The notes beneath the pieces were generated by a model. It did no database searches, was not told where the DNA came from, and was given only the letters and a program-made list of their open reading frames with translations. Shown piece by piece: positions 32,672 through 38,440 of a DNA stretch of 64,000 nucleotides. Position 1 is the stretch's first letter. Every line of letters begins with the position of its first letter. Origin of the DNA: a virus; the IMG/VR virus record IMGVR_UViG_3300037258_000374, positions 10,805-74,804 of that record. One strand, written 5' to 3'. The position numbers and the translations under genes are program-made.

Positions 32672-32750
32672 GCTCGGATGATAGCCGAGCGCAATGACAT
32701 CTTGTTCGGCGGTTTACAGCCGTGGTTCTGCGTGGGATAGGATGCTCGGT

Positions 32751-34955
32751 ATGTCAACCTGGTTCGGTCGCATGTTCGGCCGCCGCGATGCCGCACCGCG
32801 ACAGCTGAGCAGCGGCGAACTCCGGCCGTTCTCGGGCGCGCAGCGCCTCGATTCATTCCTGGCGGAGCGTAGCGACGGATGGGGCAACGTCATCACCGGT
32901 CTGATGACCGGTCGTGACAAGCGCCGCGGCGCGGTGCAGCAGTACCGGCCGATGGTCGACCTCGAGGCGCGCGAGTGGTGGCTCGGCGACGACATCGCCA
33001 AGCGCATCATCGAGACGCTGCCGAAGCTCGCGATGCATCGCGGCTACGACCTCAAGATCGCCGACGACGAAGACAGGGAGATGTCCGAGCAACTCGTCGC
33101 CAAGATGGAAGATCTGCAGTTCGATCAGAAGGTCACCAAGGCGATGATGATGAAGCGCGCGTACGGGGGCGCCGCGCTGTTCCCGGTCATCGATGGCGCG
33201 CAAGACGATCTGCGCCTGCCGATCGACCTCACCAGGATCCGCAATGTGGTCGCGCTGCATCTGCTCGAACCGCGCGAGCTGCTGCCGACGAGCTGGTACA
33301 CCGACCTTCGGAATCCGAAGTTCGGTACGCCCGAACGGTTCATGTTCATCCCGGTGCTCACGGGTGGAGTGCCGCCGCCGCAGACGCTGTCGGAGATCCA
33401 CGAGTCTCGGCTCATCCTGTTCCAGGGCACGAAGGTCAGCCGCCTGTACCAGCCCGGAGATCGCATCGGCTGGGGCGACAGCGTCCTCACGCCGATCCGC
33501 GACGTGATCATGGACTTCGGGCTCGCGTGGAGCTCGGCGTCTGCGCTGCTGCAGGACTTCGCGCAGGCCGTGCTCAAGATCGAAGGGCTCGCGAATCTGA
33601 TCACCACCGATCAGGACAAGGTCGCGCGCGCGCGCATCGAGCAGATCGACTTCATCCGCTCGGTGATGCGGATGATCGTGATCGACAAGAACGACGAGTT
33701 CTCGCGCGAGGAGACGCCGATCAGCGGGCTCGCGCAGCTGCTCGATCGCTTCTGCGTGCGCATGGCCGCTGGCGCCGACATGCCGATCACATGGCTGATG
33801 GGCCAGTCGCCAGCGGGACTGAATTCGACCGGCGAGAGCGACCGCGAGATCATGTACGACCGCGCGCGCGCCGAGCAGCACGAGACGGAGCCGCAGATCG
33901 AGCAGGGCATCCGGCTCGTGATGCTCTCGAGTGAGGGTCCTTGCGAAGGCAAAGAGCCCGACGTGTGGGGTATCAACTTCCGACCGCTGAGCTCGCCGGA
34001 CGATCAGGACATCGCGAAGACGCACAACCTCGACGCGGTCAGCGATGACTACTACATCAAGAACGGCACGCTCACGACGGACGAGGTGCGCAATCGCTGG
34101 CGCGGCGACAAGTACGGCGACATCCAGCTCGACGACGATGCGTGGCAGAAGCAACAGGACCTGCAAGCGAAGCAGATCGACGCTGCTGCGCGCGCCGCGC
34201 TCAAGGCTCCGGCGGACAGCGCGACCGGCGGCGGCACAGCGCGACCGCTCGACGTGCCGAACGCCGACGGGAAGGTGCAGCCCGGCGACTCCACGCAGAA
34301 GCTACCCGACAGCGACAATGCGCCGGCGCAAGGCGTTACGCCGCTCAACGCCGGGGCCGGCCAAATCATGATCAAGCCGCACGTCCGCAGCATCCCGAAG
34401 CGCGGCGCGATCGCGGCGCCGGTCACCGCCGGCGGCAGCGCGGCTGGACGAGCCGATCGCGATCGGTTCGATGACGAGCTCGCGGACGAGATCGCCAAGG
34501 AGCTAGCCAGCGACTATCCGCCCGAGGCGCTCACGTGGATTCGCTCGATCAAGTGGGAGGGACCGGAGCGCGTCGACCTGGCCGACATCGACTTCTCGAA
34601 CGCCGATCAGTGGCAGGCATCGCGCGAGCCGGACAAGGTCGAGAAGTTCGTGCAGCGCATCAACGCCGGATGGTCGAAGCCGATCCTGCTCGTCAAGCGG
34701 CCCGGGATGGACAAGCTGATGATCGTCGATGGCCACCATCGCGCGCTCGCGTATCAGAAGCTCGGCCGCCGCGTCATCGCATTCGTGGGCACCGCGACGA
34801 GCAACGTCGGGCCCTGGGATGACTTCCACAATTCGCAGCGGAGCAGCCCGGATAAGCAGATCCAGCGCGCAGCAATGACGAACGGAACCGCCGCAGCGCC
34901 ATCCACCGACACTGCGGCACCGATGGCGCAACCGGTCGCGTCGTCGATGAGGTAA
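32751..34955 (+). CDS. Portal protein (DUF1073 type) with C-terminal ParB/Srx-like domain
   Basis: Follows terL; RAYGGA, IHESRLI, GWGDSVL, ADMPITWLMGQSPAGLNSTGESD; tail KPILLV...MIVDGHHRALA. Confidence 0.88.
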   Translation: MSTWFGRMFGRRDAAPRQLSSGELRPFSGAQRLDSFLAERSDGWGNVITGLMTGRDKRRGAVQQYRPMVDLEAREWWLGDDIAKRIIETLPKLAMHRGYDLKIADDEDREMSEQLVAKMEDLQFDQKVTKAMMMKRAYGGAALFPVIDGAQDDLRLPIDLTRIRNVVALHLLEPRELLPTSWYTDLRNPKFGTPERFMFIPVLTGGVPPPQTLSEIHESRLILFQGTKVSRLYQPGDRIGWGDSVLTPIRDVIMDFGLAWSSASALLQDFAQAVLKIEGLANLITTDQDKVARARIEQIDFIRSVMRMIVIDKNDEFSREETPISGLAQLLDRFCVRMAAGADMPITWLMGQSPAGLNSTGESDREIMYDRARAEQHETEPQIEQGIRLVMLSSEGPCEGKEPDVWGINFRPLSSPDDQDIAKTHNLDAVSDDYYIKNGTLTTDEVRNRWRGDKYGDIQLDDDAWQKQQDLQAKQIDAAARAALKAPADSATGGGTARPLDVPNADGKVQPGDSTQKLPDSDNAPAQGVTPLNAGAGQIMIKPHVRSIPKRGAIAAPVTAGGSAAGRADRDRFDDELADEIAKELASDYPPEALTWIRSIKWEGPERVDLADIDFSNADQWQASREPDKVEKFVQRINAGWSKPILLVKRPGMDKLMIVDGHHRALAYQKLGRRVIAFVGTATSNVGPWDDFHNSQRSSPDKQIQRAAMTNGTAAAPSTDTAAPMAQPVASSMR

Positions 34956-34959
34956 CCGA

Positions 34960-36873
34960 GTGGTCGCGAAGGCCATCAAGCCGCTCAAGCTGTCGCAGCT
35001 GTCGCCGGACGGACAACGGTTGCACCGTCTCGTCCACATGCACCGCTCGATCGGAACCGCGTCGGCTCCGACACTGATCCCGCGCGTGCAGTATCCGCAC
35101 GCGCTCGAAGTGAGCTACGCGAATCAGCTCGTCGGGATGATCACGGTCGCCCGCGAGGCCACCAAGCCAGCGATGGACCAGCTCGGCAAGCTGCTCGATA
35201 GCGCCCGCGCCGCGCGCGGTGACGCCGACGATCCATCGCCGTCCCGGCAGCAGTGGTACGCCGGGCTGCCGGTCGTAGTCGAGAATCCTGCCGGCAGTGT
35301 GCGCCGTTGGACCGACGAGCACGACAACACGACCGGCGAGACGCGTATGCACTACGCGTACGGCTATATCGACGGCGTGCGCGGAGCCGATGGCGAAGAT
35401 GTCGACTGCTATCTCGGGCCCGACGAGAACGCGCCGTGGGTCTACATCGTCCGGCAGCTACGGCCGCAGCAGGCCGAGCCTGACAAGGGCCTTGGTGATC
35501 GACGGGGGTTTGACCTTCAAGCGACGCGCGATCTCAGCGCGTGTGAGCCCTCGGCCGAAGAGCTCGACCAGCTTCGCGCGATCGAAGCGCAGTTTTCGTG
35601 GCGGAGCGGAGGTGGAGTATCCGCGGCGCTTGAGCACGCGGTTGATCGCGCTATCGCTAACGCCAAAATGGCGCGCGATGCTGGCAATGGTGGCGCCCTT
35701 AGCGCGGAGGCGAAGTGCTTTCTGGATGTCCCAGAGGCGAGGTCCTCCGTGCTCGCGTCGATGGTCGGCTTGCTTCATGACGCTAAGATTCGAGATGTCG
35801 TTGTTGAGACCGTTCCCGTCGATATGGTGAACGATCTCATCTCGAGAAAGACTTCGCCCGAGCGAGCGCTCCATGACTACGCGGTGCTCCAGGCGCTGGC
35901 GTCCGCAATCGTAGATGAGGCGATAGAGCGTGTCACCACCGAGCCTTCGAACGTGTCCATTCTTGCGCGGCCTGCCCATGAAGCCGACCATAACTCATCA
36001 TCGTTGCCGTGGGTCTTTGACGAGCAAAAGATCATGCTTGGATTTTCGAGCGCAGACATCGCGAAGGCGGCCTACCTGCTCCAGTACGATGATCCGAAGT
36101 TCTACGGCGGGATGACCGTCATGTCGCTCGACGACTTCAAAGCCGAACTCGCCGAGCACACGGGCGGCATGATCTCGCACAGAGATTCGGCTCCGCGCGC
36201 ATGGCGCATGGACGCCGGCGAAGGAGCTCGAGCGCGCGCGCTGATCGAGGGAGCTCGGCTGAGGTTGACGGATGCGATCCATCCGAATCGCGTCGACGCG
36301 ATCGCAACGAAGTTCGCCAAGCAGACGAGCGATTGGCAGCGAATGCAGCTACGCCGACAGGCGAAGGCCGCGCTCGGCATCGACGTCACGACGACCGACA
36401 CCAACATCCCGGCGCTCATCGAGCACTTCGTCTCGGAGAACGTCTCGCTGATCAAGTCATTCGGCAACAAGACGATGGACGATGTCGAGAAGATCGTCAC
36501 GCGCGCCATCACGAGCGGCCGCCAGACCGAGGATGTAGCGAAGGACATCGGCGATCGATTCGACATCGGTGAGCGGCACGCTCGGATGATCGCGCGAGAT
36601 CAGATCGGCAAGCTCAACGGCCAGATCAGCGCGACTCGGCACCGCGAGCTCGGCCTGCGCCGATTCATCTGGCGCACGGTCGGCGACGACCGCGTGCGCG
36701 ACGAGCATACCGACCTGCAAGAGGAGAGCGAGTCGGAGCCGTTCGAATACGGCGATCCGCCGGACACCGACGACGGCCCGGCGATGCCAGGCGAGCCCAT
36801 CCTTTGTCGTTGCAGCGACGAGCCGGTGTATGCCGACATCACGGATCCATCCGGCGAAGACGACAACGACTGA
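34960..36873 (+). CDS. Head morphogenesis (MuF/SPP1 gp7-like) protein with an inserted inorganic-pyrophosphatase-like domain, itself interrupted by an in-frame insertion
   Basis: C-terminal ARMIARDQIGKLN...FIWRTVGDDRVRDEH...PGEPILCRC; central VENPAGSVR...YGYI...GADGEDVDCYLG // FDEQKIMLGF. Confidence 0.85.
   Translation: MVAKAIKPLKLSQLSPDGQRLHRLVHMHRSIGTASAPTLIPRVQYPHALEVSYANQLVGMITVAREATKPAMDQLGKLLDSARAARGDADDPSPSRQQWYAGLPVVVENPAGSVRRWTDEHDNTTGETRMHYAYGYIDGVRGADGEDVDCYLGPDENAPWVYIVRQLRPQQAEPDKGLGDRRGFDLQATRDLSACEPSAEELDQLRAIEAQFSWRSGGGVSAALEHAVDRAIANAKMARDAGNGGALSAEAKCFLDVPEARSSVLASMVGLLHDAKIRDVVVETVPVDMVNDLISRKTSPERALHDYAVLQALASAIVDEAIERVTTEPSNVSILARPAHEADHNSSSLPWVFDEQKIMLGFSSADIAKAAYLLQYDDPKFYGGMTVMSLDDFKAELAEHTGGMISHRDSAPRAWRMDAGEGARARALIEGARLRLTDAIHPNRVDAIATKFAKQTSDWQRMQLRRQAKAALGIDVTTTDTNIPALIEHFVSENVSLIKSFGNKTMDDVEKIVTRAITSGRQTEDVAKDIGDRFDIGERHARMIARDQIGKLNGQISATRHRELGLRRFIWRTVGDDRVRDEHTDLQEESESEPFEYGDPPDTDDGPAMPGEPILCRCSDEPVYADITDPSGEDDND
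35458..35991 (-). mobile_element. Antisense HNH homing-endonuclease-like gene nested inside the head morphogenesis gene
   Basis: EHRVVMERSLGRSLSRDEIVHHIDGNGLNNDISNL plus two HTH units; codon style differs from the flanks. Confidence 0.85.
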
Positions 36874-36952
36874 CCGGAACGCTCGACGGTAAACGGTCGC
36901 CTGAACCTGAGGGTCTTGTTCCCGGAACGGTGTTGGTGTTAGCGTGCTCTTC

Positions 36953-38440
36953 GTGTTCGGTTTCCGAACTGATGTAGCAACGCTCCGGCCCCCTAAGCGC
37001 ATGCCCGATGGAAGGCTGCGCTTCGATGCGTTCATCACGAAGCCCGGCGTCTTCGAGTATGCCGACCCGACGTATCCGGGCGGCATTCGTCGCGAGCTCC
37101 GTGACGATCGCGAGGTGTACTCGCAGCGCACGATGGAATCGTTCGCGCAGGTTCCGGTCACGCATGGTCATCCGCCGACCATGCTCAATGCCGAGAACGC
37201 GAAGTACCACATGGTCGGCAGCACGGGCGATCAGGTGCAGCGCCTGTCGCCTGGCGTGGGCGAGCCGGACCATCTCGCGACCTCGGGCATGGTCGCCGAC
37301 CGCGCGACGATCGATGCGATGGAGTCGGGCGACACCGAGGTCAGCTGCGGCTACGGCTGCGCGATCGACGAGACGCCGGGCACGCATCCGGTGTACGGCA
37401 AGTACGACTGCGTTCAGAGCAATATCATCGGCAATCATCTCGCGGTGGCGGTCGGTCGCGGCCGCGCAGGTCGCACGGCGCGCGCGCGCATGGATGCCGA
37501 ACTCACCGCAGACGAGCGTAACAAGCTTCGCGATTCGCAGTTCGCAGTTCCCAGCACCGGTCAGCTGCCGATCAACGACGAAGCGCACACGCGCGCGGCG
37601 ATGTCTCGCTACAACCAAACCGACTTCCCGTCAGCCGCGGCGAAGAAGACGGCCTACGACAAGATTTGCGCGGCGGCGAAAAAGTTCGGCATCGACTCGA
37701 CGGACTTCGAGAAGAAGTACGGCGGGGACGATCGGGCCGATTCACATCAACGAGGAGCCAGTATGGCGGACGAGAAGAAGAACGAGACCACGACCACCAC
37801 CACCGCTCCCGCCGGCGACATGTCGATCGCCGTGCTCGGCCACAAGCTGCGCGACGCCGAGACGCGCGCCGACGCTGCCGACCGCGCGCGCGACGAAGCC
37901 GTGACCGCTCGCCAGCACGCCGAGGGCAAGGTCAAGACGCTCGAGGAGCAGATCGTCGATCTGCGCACCCAGGTCTCGGCCCGCGTCGACGCGACCGAGA
38001 CGGCCGCCATCACCGCGATGCGCGAGCGCGCGCAGACGGCCGAGGCTGCGGTCTCGCACTTCGACTCGCGCTTCGACGCAGCGGTCAAGCAGCGCGTCTT
38101 GATCGTCGCGAAGGCGCAGGCGTACCTCGGCCCGAAGTTCCGCTTCGACGACATGAGCGAGCGCCAGATCATGGCGGCCGTCGTGTCGAAGCTGAACCCC
38201 AAGGCCGACGTGAGCGCGAAGGTTCCCGACGGCGAGATCAAGGGCCGCTTCGATGCCGAGACCGAGCGCGAAGACGGCTATGCGCAGAGCCTCGCGCGTT
38301 CGGCCGAGGTGCTCGCGGCCAACGTCACCGAGAAGCCGCGCACCGACGCGAAGTCCCAGTCGCAGGAGACGCTGCGCAACCTCTGGAAGCAGCCGCTTCC
38401 CAACGACATCCGTGCCGCGCACATCGCCGGCGGAAAGTGA
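36953..38440 (+). CDS. Prohead protease/scaffold (DUF2213 type) with a DUF6582-like insert
   Basis: GVFEY, PVTHGHP, EVSCGY, NHLAVAVGRGRAG; LTADERNKLRDSQFA...LPINDEAH insert; coiled-coil scaffold tail. GTG 36953 is supported by TAGCGT-N7. Confidence 0.85.
   Translation: MFGFRTDVATLRPPKRMPDGRLRFDAFITKPGVFEYADPTYPGGIRRELRDDREVYSQRTMESFAQVPVTHGHPPTMLNAENAKYHMVGSTGDQVQRLSPGVGEPDHLATSGMVADRATIDAMESGDTEVSCGYGCAIDETPGTHPVYGKYDCVQSNIIGNHLAVAVGRGRAGRTARARMDAELTADERNKLRDSQFAVPSTGQLPINDEAHTRAAMSRYNQTDFPSAAAKKTAYDKICAAAKKFGIDSTDFEKKYGGDDRADSHQRGASMADEKKNETTTTTTAPAGDMSIAVLGHKLRDAETRADAADRARDEAVTARQHAEGKVKTLEEQIVDLRTQVSARVDATETAAITAMRERAQTAEAAVSHFDSRFDAAVKQRVLIVAKAQAYLGPKFRFDDMSERQIMAAVVSKLNPKADVSAKVPDGEIKGRFDAETEREDGYAQSLARSAEVLAANVTEKPRTDAKSQSQETLRNLWKQPLPNDIRAAHIAGGK

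Follow-up and report, generated by a model that had tools for sequence, protein, structure and literature searches.

By the common view, a homing endonuclease gene can spare its host gene only by residing in a self-splicing intron, an intein or an intergenic site. The locus described here raises the question of how such a gene could sit within the coding sequence of a phage head gene with neither intron nor intein. It lies in a 64,000-nucleotide stretch of viral DNA (hereafter the window, whose positions are used throughout) from IMG/VR virus record IMGVR_UViG_3300037258_000374. There, an open reading frame (ORF) of 637 amino acids (AA) on the plus strand (34960..36873) encodes N-terminal helices, an InPase domain and a Phage_Mu_F (MuF) domain and is open throughout, and the minus strand, within the InPase part, encodes a complete HNH endonuclease. 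A preliminary description, made from the letters of the window alone, had seen in it a homing element that keeps the opposite frame free of stops. Comparison of the locus with its relatives leads us to consider, with a probability of about 0.7, that a homing endonuclease gene without intron or intein lives here antisense and codon-aligned inside coding sequence.

Location of the insert in the InPase domain

A search of 5.8 billion proteins yielded ten insert-free relatives of the host protein (432-473 AA, 43-83% identity), which read WVYIVHQ-(8 to ~30 AA)-YDEDKVMLGF; the nearest ones, P0002 (83% identical) and P0003 (68%), have an 8-AA loop at the insert position. The length of the loop varies among the relatives, thus the loop tolerates variable length. 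In the window, the N-terminal part of InPase (residues 96-166, 35245..35457, plus strand; Pfam stretch 100-173, positions 3-74 of a custom InPase hidden Markov model (HMM)) ends in ...APWVYIVRQ and its C-terminal part (residues 353-399, 36016..36156, plus strand; HMM positions 80-127) starts with FDEQKIMLGF. The insert comprises the 186 AA between them (residues 167-352, nt 35458-36015), and is made up of the 534-nt HNH ORF and a further 24 nt. The preliminary description had correctly recognized an insertion and proposed that insertion-free relatives be used to fix its boundaries; its coordinates (35455-36012) have to be moved 3 nt to the right according to those ten relatives, and the gain of about 180 AA that it had read from the open plus strand amounts to 186 AA in an uninterrupted 637-AA ORF.

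In the alignments, the residues that are invariant across the relatives are all kept on both sides of the insert, including the acidic residues and the lysine of the InPase motifs (D144, D149, E355 and K357), a pattern that fits a surface loop tolerant of insertions better than it fits a dead domain. In an AlphaFold2 (AF2) model of the host protein the InPase strands are confident up to residue 169 and again from residue 351, and residues 172-349 have a pLDDT below 50. Homing targets are usually conserved; the DNA flanking the loop in the empty alleles is conserved too, reading GTCTWCRTCGT.CA.CA. and TACGACGA.GACAAG.T.ATGCT.GG. No related loci were found when viral contigs were searched with P0002. 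In one sequencing run, contigs of the probable source soil metagenome, the source contig spans the region without differences and no contig joins across the insert, so that the empty allele was unseen in this run, which is not evidence of its absence.

The 24 nt from the HNH start to the resumed InPase homology (35992..36015) read NSSSLPWV in the host frame and may either precede the HNH gene as its 5' leader or be left over from the native loop. They contain most of the second copy (36006..36016, plus strand, at the right end of the insert) of an 11-nt direct repeat, GCCGTGGGTCT, whose first copy (35433..35443, plus strand) lies 15 nt before the left junction; the two copies are exact and both read PWV. 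This repeat could be due to chance, a remnant of a co-converted flank or a part of the HNH leader; inserts at the same site in other proteins end in xWV or xMV before xDEDK. A transposon was considered and rejected, there being no terminal inverted repeats at the insert ends; besides, the copies of GCCGTGGGTCT do not bracket the ancestral site, because a deletion between them would take out the conserved strand.

The antisense HNH gene

The HNH gene (35458..35991, minus strand) is intact, encodes 177 AA followed by TAG, covers host-frame residues 167-344 and has full-length homologs of 45-70% identity. Its HNH_3 catalytic domain (HNH residues 36-79, 35755..35886, minus strand) matches PF13392 with 38.2 bits (cut-off 24.8; E 1.1e-9), and it is followed by a helix-turn-helix (HTH; residues 90-122, 35626..35724, minus strand) that matches HTH_23 with 43 bits (E 3.3e-11). 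A second HTH (residues 146-172, 35476..35556, minus strand) is weak: the MarR_2 and MarR-type matches score 28.2 vs 27 and 25.1 vs 24.6, no stretch passing the E-value threshold, and the AF2 model places helices at residues 138-172. The HNH protein with two HTHs that the preliminary description had seen is therefore borne out, its second HTH being the weak one.

Both features expected of the I-HmuI-like HNH_3 family are present, namely the HNH motif (beta-beta-alpha-metal, His/Asn/His) and a DNA-binding module (HTH_23 plus the second HTH; model helices 89-172). H36, H55, H56, N63, N64, N68, H77 and H81 are invariant in the full-length homologs, the last seven of these residues being so in 12 homologs. 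The AF2 model of the HNH protein has a mean pLDDT of 85, exceeding 90 across residues 20-70, and its top Foldseek match is I-HmuI itself (1u3e), at an E value of 0.014 that is weak and below significance; PDB sequences searched against the HNH profile gave HTH proteins only.

The two ORFs are codon-aligned, 35458 minus 34960 being 498, or 3x166. As a consequence of this register, the HNH stop TAG corresponds on the plus strand to CTA, the codon of host Leu167 (35458-35460), just as had been noted in the preliminary description, and the HNH start ATG to CAT, the codon of host His344 (35989-35991). Within the insert, the GC content at third codon positions (GC3) is 0.73 for the HNH frame vs 0.66 for the host frame, which marks the minus strand as coding; the value of 0.73 is lower than in the phage's own genes (0.82-0.86), as would be expected if the HNH gene were of foreign origin.

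In the collection of 5.8 billion proteins the 637-AA host ORF is present and the embedded HNH protein is absent; such nucleases go unannotated because gene callers keep only the longer of two overlapping ORFs. Using tblastn, the HNH protein matched only free-standing annotated endonucleases of Flavobacterium phages, with at most 35% identity over most of the length, and the host-frame insert peptide had no match in 50,697 GenBank phage records; these searches pointed to no cultured model phage.

Stop avoidance in embedded HNH genes

Where an antisense gene is codon-aligned with its host, TTA, CTA and TCA are the only sense codons that put a stop into the host frame, and each of them can be replaced by a synonym. 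The HNH gene contains 21 Leu and 11 Ser codons and uses these three 0 times. When HNH codons were redrawn from host codon usage in simulations, the chance of finding no stop was 0.135 for the window, 0.117 for L124, a locus with a 179-AA HNH embedded in the open 2373-AA ORF of a polyvalent protein, and 0.055 for L125, where a 215-AA HNH is embedded in an open ORF of at least 1996 AA. By itself the open sense frame is thus only mildly unusual at 65% GC; it becomes clearly non-random only through the homologous inserts.

A search of viral contigs with the host-frame peptide as query found intact, codon-aligned antisense HNH genes in open ORFs of 938 to >2113 AA at eight more loci (L204-L211), the GC content of the embedded-HNH loci (L124, L125, L204-L211) being 0.44-0.64. 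Leaving out repeats (L204 repeats the HNH of L124, and L207 repeats L206), TTA, CTA and TCA are absent from 9/9 non-redundant embedded HNH genes vs 4/44 free-standing HNH_3 genes with a GC3 of at least 0.4 that were used as controls; none of the homologous inserts carries a sense-strand stop. Two further loci of the same search (L212, L213) are free-standing HNH genes whose antisense frame closes after 60-83 AA, and a long spanning antisense ORF was found in none of ~110 loci with similarity to the HNH domain only.

Since the frames are codon-aligned, one codon alignment is common to both strands. For seven pairs of family members, dN/dS values (Nei-Gojobori, NG86) were 0.19-0.39 for the HNH frame, as against 0.82-1.12 for the host frame. 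In these alignments, the HNH strand is under purifying selection and the host strand neutral, the read-through peptide behaving as a passenger constrained only against stops. The stop depletion and the strand-specific dN/dS that the preliminary description had put forward as checks both came out as it expected. Stop avoidance makes sense only if ribosomes traverse the insert, which argues against RNA splicing as well as against expression in two pieces.

These data bear directly on the alternative of a damaging insertion whose open frame is a shadow ORF due to chance, a high-GC accident in which InPase or the whole protein was inactivated, or its halves are made separately, and the loss was tolerated. 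Long antisense ORFs are indeed common in this genome of 65% GC, the probability of no stop is ~0.14, and there are phages in which MuF/gp7-type proteins and the InPase module have an accessory role. However, the stop-free, codon-aligned layout recurs in 9/9 loci down to a GC content of 0.44 vs 9% of the controls, seven divergent hosts with an insert at the same site (described below) keep the InPase motif intact on both sides, and the window keeps all invariant residues in a genome that is complete, with terminal repeats. Moreover, there is no stop after the N-terminal part, so the fused product is the ribosome's default, and we regard this alternative as unlikely. The internal start near 36208 named in the preliminary description was rejected as well: its Met belongs to the WRMDAGEG motif conserved in the empty alleles, and no Shine-Dalgarno lies upstream of it.

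A lineage of inserts at one site

We scored a profile built from three host-frame peptides against 1.84 billion cluster representatives, obtaining 622 clusters at E<=1e-3, 182 of them at E<=1e-10. Among the best 150 clusters, 116 matched proteins of at least 1000 AA and 43 contain an InPase domain, which in seven (P0049, P0054, P0056, P0063, P0075, P0081 and P0132) is split at the same HMM position (~74-82) as in the window, with junctions reading ...Y[IV][IV]HQ, then the insert ...x[WM]V, then xDEDK. The two of these that were scanned with Pfam, P0049 and P0056, join InPase to a Mu-type portal domain and not to MuF. These seven same-site clusters are exactly the top seven blastp matches of the window insert among 149 other proteins, a ranking with a chance of ~1/C(149,7). 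By sequence similarity, then, the insert lineage follows the insertion site across host architectures, as that of a site-specific homing endonuclease is expected to do. The presence/absence pattern is that of a homing gene too, with empty alleles at 83% and 68% identity and seven further clusters filled at the same InPase position.

Other insertions were seen in and around this domain. A second site within InPase (HMM ~46-50) is occupied in P0077, P0093, P0138, P0152, P0173 and P0195, and many other inserts are located just before or after the domain (e.g. L124/P0048, P0067, P0071, P0089, P0167 and P0196). From these positions, InPase-coding DNA looks like an insertion hot spot.

It could be argued that the nuclease has been domesticated and serves the phage, either in packaging, beside the portal and terminase genes, or by excluding competitors. 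In its favor, the gene is located in the head module and its relatives are under purifying selection, and many phages are reported to need an HNH protein beside the terminase and portal genes for packaging (PMC3592412). Nevertheless, the distribution is sporadic, P0002 and P0003, the closest to the host protein with 83% and 68% identity, having no HNH, and the element is tied to its insertion site rather than to a place in the genome, since Mu-portal fusions and larger proteins are filled at the same InPase site. HNH_3 plus HTH is the homing architecture of I-HmuI rather than the packaging type of HNH, and a GC3 of 0.73 vs 0.82-0.86 points to a foreign origin. Domestication thus seems distinctly improbable to us, and the HNH gene is probably selfish.

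Tests for splicing

No group I intron or other full intron matched in a search of 34900-36900 against Rfam 15 at E<=10, the only match being a D5 fragment that lies outside the insert and, with 18 bits, is at chance level. In folding, the sense RNA does not stand out from its shuffles (z = -1.16), and only 24 nt of the insert are left outside the HNH ORF; neither a ribozyme core nor a secondary structure of group I/II introns is thus seen. As for inteins, the host protein has no Hint or intein match in Pfam at E<=0.01. Leu167 is the first and Val352 the last residue of the insert, Phe353 coming next, so the junctions contain no splicing nucleophiles, and the arrangement of an intein (Hint domain, N-terminal Cys/Ser, C-terminal His-Asn followed by Cys/Ser/Thr) is not found. 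The lack of intron and intein hallmarks remarked upon in the preliminary description holds in all these comparisons.

A cryptic self-splicing element, in which the insert is removed from the mRNA (e.g. a degenerate group I intron with an opposite-strand endonuclease gene) or from the protein and the open frame is incidental, would fit with phage HNH genes often riding in group I introns, with antisense endonuclease genes being known inside inteins (bioRxiv 10.1101/2025.01.02.630785) and with distant HNH_3 genes lying antisense within terminase inteins (L013-L015, L166), but it is highly improbable given that no Rfam intron is found at E<=10, the fold z is -1.16 and 24 nt remain outside the HNH ORF, that the host-frame peptide is neutral save for a stop avoidance that an intron does not need, that Hint and intein matches are lacking and neither L167 nor F353 is a splicing nucleophile, and that the antisense HNH accounts for the whole 186 AA and leaves no room for a splicing domain.

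The terminase loci just mentioned are of interest in their own right. L013, L014 (2784-5198), L015 and L166 (2397-4718) are intein-bearing ORFs of the terminase large subunit (804 and 773 AA), with junctions such as C-VAKGTEVLMGDG ... VYDITVADENHFITKEGLVNRN, then C. In each intein, an intact HNH_3 gene runs antisense through the endonuclease slot, in another antisense phase than in the window (offset 2), and the host frame is stop-free at a simulated chance of <0.001. The list of non-canonical intein endonucleases in bioRxiv 10.1101/2025.01.02.630785 does not include an antisense HNH.

The host gene and its genomic setting

The virus record has 74,804 bp (74.8 kb) with direct terminal repeats and a CheckV completeness of 100%, of which the window represents bases 10805-74804. 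The phage genome is complete by these two measures, and we count this as support for viability. The host ORF is situated in the head module, between a portal gene (32694-34955), which matches Phage_portal_3, and a DUF2213 gene (36944-38440). In Pfam, the host protein matches InPase PF18823 with 97 bits, in two separate stretches, and Phage_Mu_F PF04233 with 53 bits (residues 508-619, 36481..36816, plus strand). It is therefore a protein of the type that joins InPase (OB-fold, pyrophosphatase-like) to an SPP1 gp7-type head morphogenesis domain, both domains and all invariant residues of this family being present.

Two observations were made on the surroundings of the host gene and on its family. 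The portal protein (753 AA, ORF 32694-34955) continues for ~300 AA past its Phage_portal_3 match, and a ParB/sulfiredoxin-like stretch, LMIVDGHHRALAYQKLG, was recognized by eye in this extension (window 34500-34800), where Pfam at E<=0.01 gave no match. A 698-AA relative with InPase and MuF (P0009) carries an intein (PF14890) within the C-terminal CRC motif of its MuF domain; the InPase-MuF family is thus also targeted by a classical mobile element, at another site than that of the HNH insert.

Proposed mechanism

We infer the absence of splicing, the nuclease activity and its specificity, and propose the following. The element consists essentially of the 534-nt HNH_3+HTH ORF and 24 nt, placed in the loop between two InPase strands. 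The HNH gene being devoid of TTA, CTA and TCA, and its own stop and start being read as Leu and His, the host frame stays unbroken. Ribosomes would read straight through it to give a 637-AA protein in which an unconstrained, floppy loop of 186 AA bulges from the InPase fold; the MuF part would remain usable, and the InPase part probably would as well. The HNH protein itself would be made from an antisense transcript and would cut or nick the insert-free InPase alleles of co-infecting relatives at GTCTACATCGT.CA.CA. / TACGACGA.GACAAG, and recombinational repair would then copy the HNH gene into the cut allele.

Several observations weigh against an antisense homing gene that is read through in this way. 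The insert adjoins the catalytic residues D354, E355 and K357, so that InPase activity may be impaired. The open frame of the window taken alone is modestly improbable (P 0.135 simulated, 0.155 analytic, x 1/3 for the frame); the pairs behind the dN/dS values are other members of the family, not the HNH gene of this window; and most of the 622 clusters are known from their host-frame peptide only, not from DNA. In addition, neither a promoter scan nor inspection by eye recognized a sigma-70-like promoter or a Shine-Dalgarno upstream of the HNH start, the sole match of the promoter/terminator scan being inside the HNH ORF. The arrangement TTGCTC-19-GATGAT-5-ATG, spotted by eye as a candidate HNH promoter, was too weak to claim.

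As for the family as a whole, it seems reasonably probable that a large lineage of HNH homing genes has taken a third way, beside introns and inteins, of residing in essential coding DNA: antisense, codon-aligned and avoiding TTA, CTA and TCA, with the host being translated through the insert as a neutral loop, and with sub-lineages specializing on sites such as the catalytic loop of InPase. Neither an intron nor an intein would be needed in this case, since the genetic code leaves one antisense phase where a nuclease gene can avoid stops at no cost, and a whole lineage seems to make use of this. Such elements are systematically unannotated, and their read-through peptides inflate the "unknown" regions of giant phage proteins. 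They also offer a natural, testable example of a long bidirectional overlap with selection on one strand and, on the other, no constraint beyond the absence of stops. The window is a good test case, having a small host (637 AA), empty alleles of 83% identity that define the target and an insert in a folded, assayable catalytic domain.

Comparison with known systems

Our search of the literature found no description of the antisense form without intein and intron, and the survey of polyvalent proteins that defines the InPase domain (PMC5512222) does not mention it; antisense endonuclease genes are described only inside inteins.

Among free-standing phage HNH genes (I-HmuI; mobE of T4 and Aeh1), the nuclease is likewise joined to a C-terminal DNA-binding module, and intron-less homing into a conserved coding site has been inferred (PMC2790892). 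Those genes, unlike the one in the window, are intergenic or split their host (the "genes-in-pieces" nrdA) and lie on the same strand, whereas here a single host frame is kept.

Inteins with antisense endonuclease genes resemble the window in that a homing endonuclease is antisense to a host frame that must stay open; they include LAGLIDADG (Gorbalenya 1998; Gogarten et al. 2002) and VSR-like endonucleases (Gosselin et al., bioRxiv 10.1101/2025.01.02.630785). In them, however, protein splicing removes the read-through peptide, whereas the window has neither Hint nor splicing residues, and the intein-borne antisense HNH_3 genes found here (L014, L166) use another antisense phase than the window.

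The closest described system is that of the "hidden HNH" elements, or ShiLan domain, of mycobacteriophage DNA methylase genes (Arsenault, Gosselin & Gogarten 2025, Genes 16:178, PMC11855218). In both cases the HNH gene fills nearly all of an in-frame, stop-free insertion with no detectable intron or intein features, occurs sporadically among close relatives, and has a host-frame product predicted to be unstructured or looping. In the ShiLan elements, however, the HNH gene lies on the same strand in the third frame, an arrangement that the window does not have, its HNH gene being on the opposite strand, codon for codon; the host is a methylase there and a virion InPase/MuF protein here, and the ShiLan HNH has zinc fingers where that of the window has HTH domains. 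An antisense, opposite-strand or reverse-complement form is not mentioned in PMC11855218. We therefore treat the window as a variant of the ShiLan type and not as a member of it, one that contributes a defined lineage of inserts at the same site.

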